From the NCBI GenBank assembly GCA_004555955.1, contig SFJG01000005.1, forward strand, positions 628 through 64,627: a DNA stretch of 64,000 nucleotides, written 5' to 3'. A model generated the notes under the pieces. That model was not told the origin of the DNA. It did not search any database and saw only the letters and a list, made by a program, of their open reading frames with translations. Below are positions 3,823 to 40,869 of this stretch, in pieces (the first letter of the stretch is position 1; every line of letters starts with the position of its first letter). The stretch comes from Bacteroidales bacterium (GTDB lineage: Bacteria; Bacteroidota; Bacteroidia; Bacteroidales; Muribaculaceae). Both the position numbers and the translations under genes were made by a program.

Positions 3823-5082
3823 ATGCTATATCATCTTTTCGACTATTTGTCACAATACGATTTGCCCGGGGCGCGATTGATGGGCTACATCTCATTTCGC
3901 GCCGCCGCGGCTCTCATCTTGTCAATTCTGATAGCAACCATCATCGGACGCCGCATCATCGACCGCCTGCAACTTATGCAAGTCGGCGAAATCGTTCGCA
4001 ACTTGGGCATCGAAGGGCAGATGAGCAAAACAGGCACACCGACAATGGGCGGTGTAATCATCATAATCGCAGTGCTTGTGCCCTGCTTGCTGGTGGGCAA
4101 CCTCACCAACACGTATATGCTGCTGATGATAGTGTCGACTCTTATGCTGGGCGCGCTCGGCTTCCTCGACGACTACAAGAAAATCAAGAAGCATAACAAA
4201 GACGGTTTGAAAGGCAAGTATAAGATTGTAGGACAGGTAGTTGTAGGTCTGATTGTCGGGCTTACGATGTATCTGAGTCCCGACATTGTGGTCAACGAAA
4301 ACGTAGAACAACCGGCAACCGACGGCGAGATTGAAGTGCTCTACAAGCCCACGGCGGAAAAGCAGCCCATCACGACCATCCCGTTTGTCAAAAGCAACAA
4401 CCTCAACTACGCTTGGTTCACCCAATGGGCAGGCGAGCATGCCGAAACCGCCGGATGGATTCTGTTCATACTGGTAACAATCTTCGTTGTGGCGGCAGTG
4501 TCGAACGGAGCCAACCTCACCGACGGGCTCGACGGACTTGCCACCGGGTCATCGGCGATAATCGGCGTGGCGCTGGCGGTGATGTGCTACCTGGGCGGCA
4601 ACATCGTCTATTCGTCGTATCTCAACATTATGTATATCCCCGGCAGCGGCGAATTGGTAGTCTATGCGGCTGCTTTCATCGGCGCTCTCGTCGGATTTTT
4701 GTGGTATAACGCCTACCCCGCTCAAGTGTTTATGGGCGATACGGGCAGTTTGACCATCGGCGGCATTATCGGCGTTTTTGCTATTTTGATTCGCAAAGAG
4801 CTGCTCATCCCGGTGCTTTGCGGAATCTTCTTGGTCGAAAACTTGTCGGTAATCATGCAAACCGGCTATTTCAAATACACCAAGAAAAAATACGGCGAAG
4901 GACGTCGCATCTTCAAGATGACACCGTTGCACCACCACTTCCAGAAGCAAGGCAACGCAGGAATTGTGGCAAAATGGCAGCATCCGATTAACCCGATTCC
5001 GGAATCGAAAATCGTTGTCCGATTCTGGATTGTTGGCATATTTCTTGCAATAATAACGTTTATAACACTTAAGATTAGATAG
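3823..5082 (+). CDS. mraY: Phospho-N-acetylmuramoyl-pentapeptide transferase
   Basis: Polytopic membrane protein with [10 protein letters not shown] and FMGDTGSL motifs, in the dcw position. Confidence 0.95.
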
Positions 5083-33924: not shown

Positions 33925-34084
33925 AAAGATAGTGCAAGGCGAGCGAAAAACAAAGCGAAAACGAAGTTTTCAAGATTTGTTTTGCCGAGCCGCAGCCTAT
34001 CTTATCCAAAGTAGTGCAAATCAAGAGCAAAAACAAATCAAAACAAGTTTTGGAATTTGCTTTTGCCACTATGCCACCTATCTT
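33925..34084. repeat. Two tandem ~80-bp imperfect-palindromic extragenic elements (AAAG(A)TAG ... CTATCTT ends)
   Basis: Copies at 33925-34003 and 34008-34084. They share caaag(a)tagtgcaa..gag.g.aaaaacaaa...ttttgcc...cctatctt. They belong to the same family as 36827-36895 and are related to the 19.8-kb array. Confidence 0.6.
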
Positions 34085-34206: not shown

Positions 34207-34281
34207 CGGGGCGTAGCGCAGTCCGGTTAGCGCACCTGCTTTGGGAGCAGGGGGTCGAAGGTTCGAATCCTTTCACCCCGA
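34207..34281 (+). tRNA. tRNA-Pro (anticodon TGG)
   Basis: The cloverleaf was folded by hand: acceptor CGGGGCG/CACCCCG (one C-A mismatch), anticodon stem CCTGC/GCAGG with loop TTTGGGA, and T-arm GAAGG-TTCGAAT-CCTTT. A TAccTTTG box lies at 34172-34179. Confidence 0.9.
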
Positions 34282-34285
34282 CAAC

Positions 34286-34327
34286 AAAAACGACGAAAAT
34301 CAGCATTTTGCGATTTTCGTCGTTTTT
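34286..34327 (+). terminator. Terminator hairpin after tRNA-Pro
   Basis: aaaaacgacgaaaatc / gattttcgtcgttttt forms a 16-bp stem with a T-run. Confidence 0.7.
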
Positions 34328-34381
34328 CGTTTACCAACCCCGCCGACATTCTTCAAAGAAAATGCAGCCGGAACGCCCAAA

Positions 34382-34738
34382 TTAAACATTAATATATGCT
34401 ACCGGATTTTGAGACTTAGGGTTTACACAATTCCATACACATAGACCAATAAATGGAGAATCTTTTACCATTATACCGTCAAATTCATAACGGACGGACT
34501 TACCGATGAATGTTTCTGACTTATACCAGCGAATAGGCTTAAACACAGCCTTGACAATGCCATGCACGATTGCCAGCACATATTCAGCTTTTTCAGCACG
34601 GTTTACACTGAGCCGCCAATAATGGCGAGCACAATCATAAATATCTTCTCTTTCTTTATTGTCGAATGTCTTGCTAATATTTAAACAAAGCAAATGGTCG
34701 TGTGGCGTCGGTTGAATGTATTTAGTGCTATCTGTCAT
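34382..34738 (-). CDS. Hypothetical 118-aa protein, third gene of the AT-rich operon
   Basis: The ATG overlaps the stop of the 47-aa ORF (TAATG). No family could be named with confidence. It contains ARHYWRLSVNRAEKAEYVLAIVHGIVKAVF. Confidence 0.6.
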   Translation of the reverse strand: MTDSTKYIQPTPHDHLLCLNISKTFDNKEREDIYDCARHYWRLSVNRAEKAEYVLAIVHGIVKAVFKPIRWYKSETFIGKSVRYEFDGIMVKDSPFIGLCVWNCVNPKSQNPVAYINV

Positions 34739-34881
34739 TAATCCCGGTCATTTAATTGGTTAATAAATTCTTCTTCGTCGATTTCTTGGTAAATCGGCTG
34801 TTGTTCTTGGGAGCACTCGCAGCAGTGGCAATGACCATCGCCACTACGTCCGCCTCGTAATATTGAGATAGACTCTGCCAT
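34738..34881 (-). CDS. Unlisted 47-aa Cys/His-rich acidic micro-ORF
   Basis: Hand translation gives MAESISILRGGRSGDGHCHCCECSQEQQPIYQEIDEEEFINQLNDRD*. The ATG lies 2 nt after the upstream stop, and the TAA overlaps the downstream ATG. It falls below the 60-aa cutoff of the ORF track. Confidence 0.5.
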   Translation of the reverse strand: MAESISILRGGRSGDGHCHCCECSQEQQPIYQEIDEEEFINQLNDRD

Positions 34882-34883
34882 AA

Positions 34884-35972
34884 TTAGTTATGATTGCTAT
34901 TTATGCCTTTTACAAATACTTTGTAATTGCTCTCACCATTAGGTTTATCATATTGAAATTCTTTAAGTGAAAAATGAGGACAATTATTTGCACAAAGTAA
35001 ATAAGGATTTATCTTTGTGCCTTTTGATTTGTATAGTATGCAAATATTTCTCATGTGAAAATCATTGAAACGGTAAAATTTGCACATGCTACAATATTTG
35101 AGATCTATGCCGGATTTTATCAATTCTGAAAATGCAAAATCTAAATGAATTGGGAAATCTGCATCTATACGGAAAACAGAATTTGATAATTCTGAAGGAT
35201 TTGGAGTCAAGCAAAAATTTGAATAGTCATATTCATCGAATCTGCCAATATGAAAAGAAAGTTGTTCGTCAATCCAGAATTGAATTTTTGGGCGTTGGTG
35301 TTCCTCGGTCGGACTTTCATAACTTTCACCATGGAAGTTTACAAATTTTACTAAGTCGATGCCATCAGACCATTCATTTTTGTAGTAAACTAATTCGGTA
35401 ATAGAATGTTCTGATACTATTTCTTCTATTGATTCTTCAGAAGTAACTTTAATCTCAATTATACGATAACCAGAATTAATCTTTTCTTCTGTTGATTTAT
35501 GAGAAACAAAAATTTCAATAAGGATTGGCGGATATTCAGGACGGTTGCTATTTGATAAGACCAAATCCCCAACAAATTGTCCAACACTCTTTTCAATACT
35601 ACATGTGTCGTAAAATTTTTTAACGTCAAAAGATTTTAATTCTCGCCATGAACAAGGTTCTTGAACATTAAGTGGGCAGTCAGATTTGTTGCAAATGATT
35701 TTTGGGCTAAAGTTTATTTGAAAAGTTTCAGCTTCGTCAAAAGATTTTTTGATGCGTAATTTAGCTATTTTGTGCAAATATGTTTCGTAGTTACATTTTG
35801 CACCGGATTTATGAGTAAAATGCCAACGGCGAACTTTACCCATGTGAGGAATCATAATTTCACCACAACAAGGACAATAGTATGTGCAGCTGCGTGATGC
35901 ATATCTGACATTTATTAAAGTGTCAGATTCATCAAAAGCATATGAATAGTCTTGCTTTATAGTATTACCCAT
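34884..35972 (-). CDS. CoiA-like Zn-ribbon + PD-(D/E)xK-type nuclease-fold protein with a Cys-rich C-terminus
   Basis: The N-terminus YYCPCCGEIMIPHMGKVRRWHFTHKSGAKCNYETYLHK matches the CoiA-like pattern (CPxC...HFxH...C..E..H..K). It is followed by VGDLVL...ILIEIFVSHKS (D...ExxxS/K). The C-terminus contains CSMCKF...CANNCPHF. Confidence 0.6.
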   Translation of the reverse strand: MGNTIKQDYSYAFDESDTLINVRYASRSCTYYCPCCGEIMIPHMGKVRRWHFTHKSGAKCNYETYLHKIAKLRIKKSFDEAETFQINFSPKIICNKSDCPLNVQEPCSWRELKSFDVKKFYDTCSIEKSVGQFVGDLVLSNSNRPEYPPILIEIFVSHKSTEEKINSGYRIIEIKVTSEESIEEIVSEHSITELVYYKNEWSDGIDLVKFVNFHGESYESPTEEHQRPKIQFWIDEQLSFHIGRFDEYDYSNFCLTPNPSELSNSVFRIDADFPIHLDFAFSELIKSGIDLKYCSMCKFYRFNDFHMRNICILYKSKGTKINPYLLCANNCPHFSLKEFQYDKPNGESNYKVFVKGINSNHN

Positions 35973-36300
35973 CTATAATACAGAAGTTTGTTGAGAAACA
36001 ATCTTGCTACCATACAACATCAAGATAGAAAATATCATCATTCATGCTTAATAGTAGATATAAAATTCTTGATTTGTTTTTTAGCACACATTTGCAAATC
36101 TGCTTGCGAAGATAATAATAAAAATTAATTCAGTGCGAAATTTTTTTCATAAAACGCTCGATATATTCACGCTGAAGGCGTCGTGCCGGGGACTTTGCGC
36201 GCAAGCTTACTGCTGCGCCGATAACCCGTTGTTCTTTGTCGCACACCTCCTTCCTGCCAAAACAGAATGTATTGGTTGCCCCAAACGCGCTCGACAAAAC

Positions 36301-36333
36301 AAAAAAAGAGCGCTGAAGTTCAGCGCTCTTTGA
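36301..36333 (-). terminator. Terminator hairpin 3' of tRNA-Gln
   Basis: agagcgctgaa / ttcagcgctct is palindromic and flanked by A7 on the plus strand (a U-run on the minus strand). Confidence 0.7.
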
Positions 36334-36334
36334 G

Positions 36335-36405
36335 TTGTCTTATCCGGACTCGAACCAGAACAGGCAGAACCAAAAACTGCAGTGCTACCATTACACCATA
36401 AGACA
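36335..36405 (-). tRNA. tRNA-Gln (anticodon TTG)
   Basis: On the minus strand the sequence reads TGTCTTA TG GTGT AATGGTA GCAC T GCAGT TTTTGGT TCTGC CTGT TCTGG TTCGAGT CCGGA TAAGACA A. The acceptor stem is perfect. Confidence 0.9.
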
Positions 36406-36810: not shown

Positions 36811-36826
36811 AAAATGTATCTTTACA

Positions 36827-36895
36827 TAAGACAAGCTGCATCTCGGCAAAACAATCAAGCAAGCTTGTTGATTTTGCTCTCGATTTGCATTATCT
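36827..36895. repeat. Single copy (inverted orientation) of the palindromic extragenic element family
   Basis: aagacaagctgcatCTCGGCAaaacaaTCAAGCAAGCTTGttgatttTGCTCTCGatttgcattatctt shares the CTCGGCA...CAAGCAAGCTTG...GCTCTCG core with the 19.8-kb array. Confidence 0.55.
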
Positions 36896-40515: not shown

Positions 40516-40869
40516 CTACTTACTTGCTTTCTTGCAAGTAGCATCTTTCTTGCAGCAGCCTTCTGTCTTCTTGCAAGTTGCATCCTTCTTGCAAGTTGCT
40601 TCTTTCTTGCAGCAGCCTTCTGCCTTCTTGCAAGTAGCATCTTTCTTGCAGCAGCCTTCTGCCTTTTTGCAAGTAGCGTCTTTCTTGCAGCAGCCTTCTG
40701 TCTTCTTGCAAGCAGCGTCTTTTTTGCAAGTAGCATCTTTCTTACAAGTTGCTTCTTTCTTGCAGCATTCTTTTTTCTCACATTTTGTTGTAGCAGTTTG
40801 TGCGGCCATCGATGCCGATGCGCCCAAGCAAATTACAACAGCCAAAATGGCTACGATTAACTTTTTCAT
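40516..40869 (-). CDS. Secreted Cys/Lys-rich tandem-repeat protein, (x)3-4-C-K-K units
   Basis: Sec signal MKKLIVAILAVVICLGASASMA, followed by 95 residues. By hand count these hold 13 CKK triplets, 19 Cys and 30 Lys (ATCKKD / EGCCKK units). The DNA consists of 18/21-nt tandem repeats. Confidence 0.7.
   Translation of the reverse strand: MKKLIVAILAVVICLGASASMAAQTATTKCEKKECCKKEATCKKDATCKKDAACKKTEGCCKKDATCKKAEGCCKKDATCKKAEGCCKKEATCKKDATCKKTEGCCKKDATCKKASK

Follow-up and report, generated by a model that had tools for sequence, protein, structure and literature searches.

What does a compact, AT-rich group of three genes do between two tRNA genes of a gut bacterium? This question is raised by a 64,000-nucleotide stretch of DNA (the window) from a Bacteroidales bacterium of the family Muribaculaceae (assembly GCA_004555955.1, contig SFJG01000005.1, positions 628 to 64,627), in which an island of 1766 bp (34382-36147) carries three genes on the minus strand. 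According to the open reading frame (ORF) calls, these are g1 (34884-35972), which encodes a 362-aa CoiA-like protein with a CoiA_N match, g2 (34738-34881), a small ORF for a Cys/His-rich acidic peptide of 47 aa, and g3 (34382-34738), which encodes a 118-aa standalone reader-domain protein recognised by its homology to PD-T4-3. The original prediction, made from the sequence alone, had proposed an acquired defence or toxin-antitoxin-like module. We find that the segment is very likely a small accessory phage-defence islet, in which two separately mobile modules are joined, and that, with a likelihood that falls just short of even, g1 and g3 would act together as a split modification-dependent restriction system.

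The island is strain-variable and lies in a restriction hotspot

The island is the strongest compositional outlier of the window, with a G+C content of 0.336 compared to 0.516 +/- 0.032 in all other segments of the same size (minimum 0.437; z = -5.7), and the original by-eye estimate of about one third against one half G+C was accurate. The G+C content at third codon positions (GC3) is 0.24 in g1 and 0.34 in g3, compared to 0.55 in the neighbouring murI. The ORF calls agree with the compact layout that had been described, in which 2 nt separate the stop of g1 from the ATG of g2 and the stop of g2 overlaps the start of g3 by 1 nt (TAATG), and the predicted limits (34375-36130) fall within 7 nt and 17 nt of those found here. 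As had also been stated, there is no integrase, transposase or methyltransferase among the ORFs inside the island, which lies between tRNA-Pro(tgg) (34207-34282, plus strand), the conserved flank of the hotspot, and tRNA-Gln(ttg) (36334-36405, minus strand), the conserved flank on the other side, both supported by tRNA calls and Rfam.

Conspecific contigs were retrieved by the exact sequence of the neighbouring MurI protein (L-numbers denote the loci and contigs compared). One of them, L104, which has an identical MurI and flanks that are 96-98% identical, lacks exactly 34382-36147 and has nine unrelated nucleotides instead; this precise empty site bears out the acquired origin that had been proposed. 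Other contigs with an identical MurI carry different genes at the same junction: an AAA_5 protein and a RE_LlaJI-like protein in L101 (a LlaJI/McrB-like cargo), a 1344-aa ResIII + Eco57I type IIG enzyme in L103 and L105, and a DNA_methylase, SNF2 helicase and NOV_C cargo in L102. All the cargo variants join the conserved flank at a single point (...TTTGGGCGTTCCGGCTGCATTT), about 100 nt from tRNA-Pro. In summary, the island DNA is acquired and strain-variable and lies in a restriction hotspot. Since restriction systems replace one another at this site between strains, there is strong positional evidence for a defence role, and the defence relation put forward in the original prediction is very probable. 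The locus provides a precise cargo-swapping hotspot, where strains have either an empty site or one of at least four alternative cargoes, beside the tRNA-Pro gene of an abundant uncultured gut Bacteroidales species that is Candidatus Limisoma-like, which is useful for work on strain-level phage resistance.

The idea that the tRNA linkage itself is the signature of acquisition did not hold. A tRNA-targeting integrative island was considered and rejected, as there is no integrase and no tRNA 3'-end direct repeat at the boundaries; a search of both ends for att-like or tRNA-derived direct repeats gave none, and the first island base lies about 100 nt past tRNA-Pro, beyond the tRNA-Pro terminator. 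Hence, the cargo is probably exchanged via the conserved flanks, and the single join point of all the cargoes fits a replacement by flanking homology.

g3 resembles the modification-sensing domain of a type IV restriction enzyme

g3 matched the PADLOC model of PD-T4-3 (E = 1.7e-12, profile positions 135-193 of 256) and the PHROG family phrog_5356 (E = 7e-12). A g3 profile built from 14 homologs was run against the whole PDB and gave two matches, 9U75 (E = 2e-11) and 9U7U (E = 7e-10), at chain residues 151-209, both under the title 'GIY-YIG domain-containing protein'. These entries are crystal structures of CMoRE (= PD-T4-3), a type IV restriction endonuclease in which the N-terminal GIY-YIG domain cuts and the C-terminal domain binds 5hm-dCTP, and which degrades exclusively DNA that contains 5-hydroxymethylcytosine (5hmC) or its glucosylated form (5ghmC) (PMC12923530). 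A Capnocytophaga CMoRE homolog is likewise modification-dependent and also acts on Mu DNA (PMC12366544). The alignment of a full-length PD-T4-3-like protein to the whole g3 profile (E = 1e-40) covered positions 6-117, and g3 therefore corresponds to the whole domain, not to a fragment. No GIY-YIG family match was obtained for g1, g2 or g3 in the Pfam, PADLOC, NCBIfam and PHROG searches. As judged from this homology, g3 is a free-standing counterpart of the 5hmC-binding, modification-sensing C-terminal domain of PD-T4-3/CMoRE, and its ligand would be a hypermodified cytosine. The ratio of nonsynonymous to synonymous substitution rates (dN/dS) of g3 is 0.09-0.16, indicating strong purifying selection. 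The original prediction could name no family for either small product; this has been superseded for g3 and stands for g2, which has no family match in Pfam, PADLOC, NCBIfam or PHROG.

The wider reader family was collected by an exhaustive profile search, which gave 1136 cluster representatives of the domain, both free-standing (about 100-150 aa) and fused. A LEM-3-type GIY-YIG domain was present in 46 of the 65 fused representatives scanned against Pfam, and one or a few of the 65 had T5orf172/MUG113, HNH, NOV_C, PDDEXK_4, TIR, SRA or EVE domains, a mix-and-match pattern that is typical of modified-base readers. The neighbours of standalone readers were examined in 25 reader loci. A 113-aa reader followed by the same 413-aa PDDEXK_4 protein, with differing outer flanks, was found in 11 loci (L013, L115, L117-L119, L121 and L123-L127), and the 413-aa protein corresponds to the PADLOC candidate PDC-S26 (E = 9e-88). 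In four loci (L114-L117), the reader lies directly downstream of GmrSD-type genes, with a gap of 4 nt in L115, where the GmrSD-type enzyme belongs to the HEC-06 family. We conclude that the reader is a mobile accessory of restriction nucleases. In the literature searched, there was no instance of reader and nuclease pairs tested experimentally as pairs. PADLOC lists PDC-S26 as a single-gene candidate; in these genomes, it may in fact be a two-gene system of reader and nuclease.

g1 is a CoiA-like candidate nuclease

The reach of Pfam in g1 is limited to the N-terminal zinc ribbon, which matches CoiA_N (PF25164) with E = 1.4e-10 and 41 bits against a cutoff of 26.3. All 40 of the 40 g1-family members match CoiA_N, and the related ribbon models DUF7830 and DUF7828 match too. 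In the family alignment, the C2H2 ribbon residues C33, C36, H51 and H54 and the acidic pair D136 and E153 are invariant, and the further core residues E63, H158 and K159 are invariant or nearly so. Also conserved are C60, C94, C99 and C107, which form a second Cys cluster, and the cysteines of a Cys-rich C-terminal domain (C254, C294, C297, C311, C331); the three Cys clusters could be Zn or Fe-S sites. AlphaFold2 models of the full chain and of the core alone (residues 56-200) were confident, with predicted local distance difference test (pLDDT) scores of 89 and 88, respectively. They contain a helix (62-80), strands at 123-130, 133-140 (with D136) and 150-155 (with E153), a helix (162-165) and a strand (170-175); D136 and E153 are found on consecutive strands behind the long helix, which is a PD-(D/E)xK-like placement. 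The core of g1 is thus probably a PD-(D/E)xK nuclease, with fold evidence that is suggestive only. Of what had been predicted for this protein, the CoiA-like ribbon and the Cys-rich C-terminus were found again, and the nuclease fold is suggested, not demonstrated. With a dN/dS of 0.17-0.18, g1 is under purifying selection.

The CoiA nuclease domain (PF06054) had no match at E <= 1 in any of the 40 family members, and a core-profile search for distant relatives returned fragments of the same family alone and no annotated nuclease domain. NCBIfam gave no match for g1, g2 or g3, and the g1 family is not covered by PADLOC (v2), where a weak DruB match (E = 0.12) was the only one. g1 is CoiA-like in architecture and probably a nuclease, and does not belong to the CoiA competence family. 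A Foldseek search against viral predicted structures (BFVD) gave seven matches at E <= 0.001 over about 200 columns, all to unnamed proteins, then a phage protein annotated 'Competence protein' (E = 1.3e-3) and, lower down, proteins annotated as PD-(D/E)XK. The BFVD matches include A0A2I7QR29, I3UKP0, Q8QNP7 (EsV-1-12) and Hyperionvirus proteins, from phages and giant or algal viruses, and relatives of g1 (29-36% identity) are encoded on five viral-classified IMG/VR contigs (L133-L137). The module of zinc ribbon and core is widespread in viruses.

Among species-representative genomes, g1 has 153 relatives; the 80 listed of these 153 have Bacteroidales titles, except two short contigs binned as Ruminococcus. 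A close relative in the same 90% cluster is named 'competence protein CoiA family protein' at NCBI. In about 38 of 97 loci, a gene for a 162-aa helix-turn-helix (HTH) protein abuts the start of the g1 homolog, and other g1 homologs are often solo. The 162-aa protein has an unknown N-terminal domain of about 95 aa and a C-terminal XRE-type HTH, which resembles PADLOC HTH_VI and Control_protein; it is a real conserved partner of the g1 family that is not present in the window. Examples of its gene are found in L008 (5511-5999), L020-L029 and L051-L075. Other g1 homologs lie beside MNT/HepT pairs (L004-L007) or Eco57I-type enzymes (L098, L138), and an island in L141 has the order PDC-S02, g1, PD-T4-3, PDC-S11.

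In four independent lineages, a CMoRE-type reader domain and a g1 homolog are no more than about 1.5 kb apart. Besides the window, these are L046, whose standalone reader is encoded upstream of a g1 homolog of 35% identity, and L039 and L141, with a complete PD-T4-3-like enzyme (GIY-YIG and reader) downstream of g1. Four such co-localisations are far more than expected by chance for so rare a domain, and a shared residence in islands of modification-dependent nucleases is equally compatible with them. In the metagenome-assembled genome of L039 (1029-2848), frameshifts split both the g1 homolog and the PD-T4-3-like gene beside it, which is either a real pseudogenisation of a two-gene islet or an assembly error.

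g2 marks the seam between two mobile modules

The original prediction treated the three genes as one unit. This was not supported by their co-occurrence: among the 97 loci, g2 and g3 follow g1 in the closest lineage only, g1 homologs are almost never accompanied by g2 or g3, and g2-g3 moves separately. The mobile g2-g3 block (34367-34853, 488 bp, minus strand), defined by its recurrence in other loci, meets the g1 module at an upstream seam at about 34853. At 92-95% nucleotide identity, it recurs in L111 after a type I R-like gene and a 224-aa gene, in L112 after a type I R C-terminus, in L101 after a LlaJI-like gene in the same hotspot, and in L128; at 80% identity, from 34839, it recurs after unknown genes in L016. 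On the other side of the seam, g1 has its own upstream region. An AT-rich non-coding leader (35973-36147, minus strand, G+C 0.26), defined by its composition, is the presumed promoter region of the operon, and its g1-proximal part of about 100 nt (35973-36072) moves with g1, as L141 and L143 align to window positions 36072-34860 at 90.7% identity. An exact Bacteroidetes TAnnTTTG box was not found upstream of g1, and a sigma-70 promoter scan gave no excess in the region.

The origin of g2 itself can be read from the related loci. A small upstream ORF (native g2) always accompanies the 118-aa reader form closest to g3; this ORF of 50-51 aa reads M(F)NEEPPEETECTCG(H/R)SGDGHCHCCEC...INQLNDWD in L101 and L112, and L111 has the variant MDNETEDIECTCGHSGDGHCLCCEC... 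In L140, whose g1 is 90% identical to that of the window, a 224-aa gene starting MADTISIYEAAKW lies 6 nt after g1, and a 33-aa remnant of this gene is present in L098. The g2 of the window reads MAESISILR|GGRSGDGHCHCCEC..., that is, nine 5' codons of the 224-aa gene joined to the rest of the native ORF, and the position of this join at about 34853 coincides exactly with the start of the mobile block. In addition, the window and L001-L003 are 99.8% identical in g1 and differ by 5-6% in the g2 region. In summary, g2 in the window is a deletion-fusion ORF, the scar between two independently mobile modules, g1 and g2-g3, and the g1-g2-g3 arrangement is a mosaic, not a conserved unit. The constraint on g2 is mixed: its dN/dS is 0.18-0.45 over few sites, L001 has an in-frame codon deletion and L101 keeps the frame, the start codon is missing in L016, and the ATG is mutated in L099.

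Two further observations concern the genes around the seam. The 224-aa gene (L140 1354-2028; L111 3185-3859; remnant in L098 4146-4247) is 93% identical between L140 and L111 and follows g1 or a type I R-like gene; its D...EVEYFVECKYR motif is reminiscent of PD-(D/E)xK/Mrr, and since it has no Pfam or PADLOC match, an Mrr-like assignment is not claimed. A relation of the acidic tail of g2 to the autoinhibitory acidic loop of CMoRE was dropped, as that loop sits inside the GIY-YIG domain.

Acidic ORFs of 47-54 aa that end in ...(I/V)(N/D)(Q/E)LNDWD, with a stop that typically overlaps the start of the next gene, precede different cargo genes in Bacteroidales defence islands. Besides g2 of the window (34738-34881), they are present in L101 (5343-5498), L111 (about 3851-4000), L112 (473-625), L113 (2145-2300), L099 (2105-2251) and L141 (6143-6307 and 6691-6843). 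They exist in two variants, A with the CTCG..GDGHCHCCEC motif and B with GDVEHDMWVDYDHYQ, and acidic '...DELNDWD' ORFs of a second variant precede unrelated genes in L141, L099 and L113. They may act as a portable leader for translational coupling or as an adaptor peptide, or may mark a recombination seam.

A proposed split restriction system that depends on DNA modification, and its alternatives

We propose that the island is a two-module defence islet with a type IV-like restriction, an explanation that, taken as a whole, is about as likely to be right as wrong. The first module, g1 with its own leader, would be a solitary, methylase-less, CoiA-like candidate nuclease, and the second the g2-g3 cassette, in which g3 would be a free-standing form of the domain type that CMoRE uses to bind 5-hydroxymethyl- and glucosyl-hydroxymethyl-cytosine. 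The three genes would be co-transcribed from the AT-rich leader. g3 would recognise hypermodified bases in incoming phage DNA and would supply or extend recognition, and g1, as the nuclease, would cleave that DNA. Unmodified host DNA would be spared and hence no methyltransferase would be needed, and g2 would be a by-product ORF of the deletion that fused both modules. The components of a type IV system are present in that the island has a reader by homology, a probable nuclease, and three ORFs with no methylase among them. We infer the nuclease activity of g1 as well as its physical or functional coupling to g3.

Several points weigh against this proposal. On the side of the nuclease, there is no Pfam or PDB sequence match of g1 outside the zinc ribbon, and the g1 family profile gave noise-level results against PDB sequences. 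PD-(D/E)xK enzymes are among the top Foldseek matches in the PDB for the full chain (SfsA, E = 0.014, and Can2) and for the core (SfsA, E = 0.13, then Bax1, EndoMS, Nt.BspD6I and EcoRV), in neither case with significance, and the canonical (D/E)xK lysine is out of place in g1 (E153-I-F). On the side of the coupling, about 95 of about 100 g1 loci have no nearby reader and have the HTH partner or none instead, and g1 was found in none of the 25 reader loci examined. The enzyme in L039 and L141 is complete without a partner, so its co-localisation with g1 may only reflect a shared residence in type IV islands. As for the target, we know of no phage with hypermodified DNA for this host.

The natural loss of g3 is a further point on this side. 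A 321-bp deletion (34365-34685) in L001, L002 and L101 joins 34686 to 34364 and leaves a g3 stub of 17 codons; it is bounded by two copies of a direct repeat, CATTTGCTTTG (34686-34696) and CATTTTCTTTG (34354-34364) on the gene strand. The start codon of the stub is also mutated in L002, and g3 is frameshifted in L128. In L001 and L002, g1 is intact and 99.8% identical to that of the window, which implies that g1 is independent of g3. g1 is thus tolerated on its own and presumably useful on its own.

The leading alternative, which we consider possible and clearly less probable than the proposed split system, is that two unrelated defence genes share the hotspot with no functional coupling. g1 would then be self-sufficient, with its target choice or control coming from its own Cys-rich C-terminal domain and, elsewhere, from the HTH partner; g3, independent or an accessory to another nuclease, would have been brought beside g1 by the deletion that created g2. 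The predominance of solo or HTH-paired g1 in almost all loci and the g3 deletions beside an intact g1 speak for such a coexistence, as do the presence of g2-g3 behind LlaJI-like, type I R, 224-aa and 282-aa genes, the recombination seam at about 34853 with the very different divergence of g1 and g2 from the conspecific contigs, and g2 itself, which marks the junction as a secondary deletion product. However, the reader lacks a catalytic domain and consistently shares an operon with nucleases (the 4-nt gap to GmrSD and the PDDEXK_4 pair), and hence a role in trans with the adjacent nuclease is the simplest reading. Moreover, g3 has no space for a promoter of its own in the window and must be co-expressed with g1, and an intact g3 is under strong purifying selection in this arrangement (L107 and L108).

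A broader form of the split system is rather improbable. In it, the CMoRE-type reader (about 115 aa) would be a portable, trans-acting specificity subunit that docks onto unrelated nucleases (g1, PDDEXK_4/PDC-S26, GmrSD/HEC-06 and LlaJI-like) and redirects or licenses their action against hypermodified phage DNA, and the small acidic '...LNDWD' ORF that precedes the reader would be a portable coupling or adaptor element with which the cassette could be placed behind any nuclease gene. If true, this would amount to a plug-and-play evolution of type IV specificities in gut Bacteroidales, and the g1 family would be a new, widespread Bacteroidales restriction nuclease mislabelled as a competence protein.

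The losses and the scar also bear on whether the island is functional at all. We consider it unlikely that the island has decayed from a larger defence island and now does little or nothing, with g2 as a scar and g3, perhaps also g1, in the course of being lost. Such decay would account for the deletion-fusion origin of g2, for the deleted or frameshifted g3 in L001, L002, L101 and L128, for the frameshifted g1 and PD-T4-3-like genes in L039, and for the absence from the window of the 224-aa gene that follows g1 in L140. Yet g1 and g3 in the window are full-length with all family-invariant residues present, their dN/dS is low, and an identical g1 is present in several samples.

The toxin-antitoxin-like idea of the original prediction was not borne out, and we regard as very unlikely a toxin-antitoxin or abortive infection system in which g1 is a toxic nuclease restrained by g2 and/or g3 and released on infection. 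The compact operon with overlapping small genes downstream of a nuclease has the expected form, an acidic g2 could in principle mimic DNA, g1 homologs adjoin MNT/HepT genes in L004-L007, and the HTH partner of other g1 homologs is typical of toxin-antitoxin autoregulation. However, L001 and L002 keep an intact g1 after the loss of g3, so g3 can be no indispensable antitoxin for g1, and the g3 family consists of DNA-modification readers, not antitoxins. g2, for its part, arose as an artefact of fusion, has a mutated ATG in L099 and is missing from all g1 homologs of <=53% identity; no small partner is conserved downstream of g1.

Finally, that g1 is a genuine CoiA orthologue acting in natural transformation (D-loop processing), a matter of housekeeping recombination, is barely credible: the CoiA_N ribbon, the shared order of a zinc finger, an atypical PD-(D/E)xK core and an extended C-terminal region, the NCBI name of a close relative and the phage 'Competence protein' found by Foldseek would fit, but no family member reaches PF06054, g1 is strain-variable, AT-rich and in a restriction hotspot, CoiA is the solution of Bacillota and other phyla use YraN (10.1101/2024.02.06.579203), and the g1 family is essentially confined to Bacteroidales, with defence genes and not competence genes as neighbours.

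Comparison with known systems

Classical type IV enzymes combine a modified-base reader with a non-specific nuclease and have no methylase, as in SRA- and EVE-nuclease fusions, McrBC and GmrSD. The proposed split system would share this modular composition, and g3-domain fusions to SRA and EVE exist; in contrast, the reader and the candidate nuclease of the window are separate genes of independent origin that were joined by a recent deletion. The likeness to PD-T4-3/CMoRE extends to its entire C-terminal modification-sensing domain, to which g3 is homologous, to the lack of a methyltransferase, to the defence-island setting and to the expected logic of reader and nuclease. In the window, however, the reader stands alone as a protein of 118 aa, and the candidate nuclease next to it is unrelated and of a CoiA-like/PD-(D/E)xK type.

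The nearest structural analogues of a split reader and nuclease system are the arrangements of a reader with PDDEXK_4 (PDC-S26) and of GmrSD/HEC-06 with a reader, in which a standalone reader, 63-67% identical to g3, also lies beside a nuclease. The PDDEXK_4 arrangement differs in that the partner nuclease family has no similarity to g1 and the reader comes first; hhalign showed no relationship of g1 to the PDDEXK_4 partner or to the 224-aa gene.

CoiA is described as having a C2H2 finger, an atypical PD-(D/E)xK core, in which the Asp and the Glu lie on strands 2 and 3, respectively, and a long region at the C-terminus (10.1101/2024.02.06.579203). g1 resembles it in the N-terminal C2H2 finger, the Asp and Glu on successive strands and the long C-terminal extension, whereas it has no PF06054 match and no link to competence genes, contains extra Cys clusters, and is accessory, AT-rich, essentially confined to Bacteroidales and found in restriction hotspots. 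PD-lambda-4B, an E. coli protein validated in phage defence, carries a CoiA-like zinc ribbon at its N-terminus (HHpred residues 1-66) and comes from a two-gene system, PD-lambda-4, whose other gene matched AAA/P-loop families (PMC9519451 supplement). The likeness of g1 to this protein is in the N-terminal CoiA-type ribbon alone, and the PADLOC models of PD-lambda-4A/B had no match to g1, g2 or g3 at E <= 1.

The principle of a reader and a nuclease without a methylase is already known, as is the reader domain, and the advance is in this respect incremental. What is new is the reader as a free-standing, shuffled gene, its link to the uncharacterised g1 family, publicly labelled as a 'competence protein', and the population-level picture of the hotspot. 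If true, the 5hmC-reading CMoRE domain would exist as an independent gene shuffled among nucleases, from which type IV specificities are assembled from parts, and a defence role would be assigned to a family present in at least 153 species-representative genomes, almost all Bacteroidales, and labelled 'competence protein CoiA'. A further use of standalone readers could be as small reagents in the detection of modified bases.

Flanking and other features of the window

A hairpin with perfect 16-nt arms between an A-run and a T-run (34286-34327; inverted repeat I6), found by the inverted-repeat search and apparent in the sequence, would be the tRNA-Pro terminator and, plausibly, a bidirectional terminator that also serves the g1-g2-g3 transcript. 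A second terminator-like hairpin (36305-36331) is located after tRNA-Gln. The tRNA-Gln gene is followed by tRNA-Asp, and the Rfam scan identified three tRNAs and no further non-coding RNA.

Between tRNA-Gln and the island, there is a 55-aa ORF of normal G+C content (36130-36297, minus strand), whose last codons are island-derived (...ERFMKKISH*). In the empty-site strain, the same ORF continues as ...ERFMGNTFW..., so the island boundary falls within it; it is probably not a real gene.

Two adjacent inverted-repeat pairs between 33977-34036 and 36820-36892 (35 nt with 83% and 25 nt with 88% complementarity) bracket the whole segment from tRNA-Pro to tRNA-Asp, hotspot included. These repeats overlap with Bacteroidetes-type -7 boxes (TATCTTTG), which are oriented towards murI and towards a gene starting at about 36934, and may be paired divergent promoter regions. 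Further away, a tandem repeat (40527-40767) with periods of 39, 57 and 96 nt (about 2-5 copies, 76-91% matches) aligns ambiguously in the conspecific contigs L001 and L104, where its copy number is apparently different.

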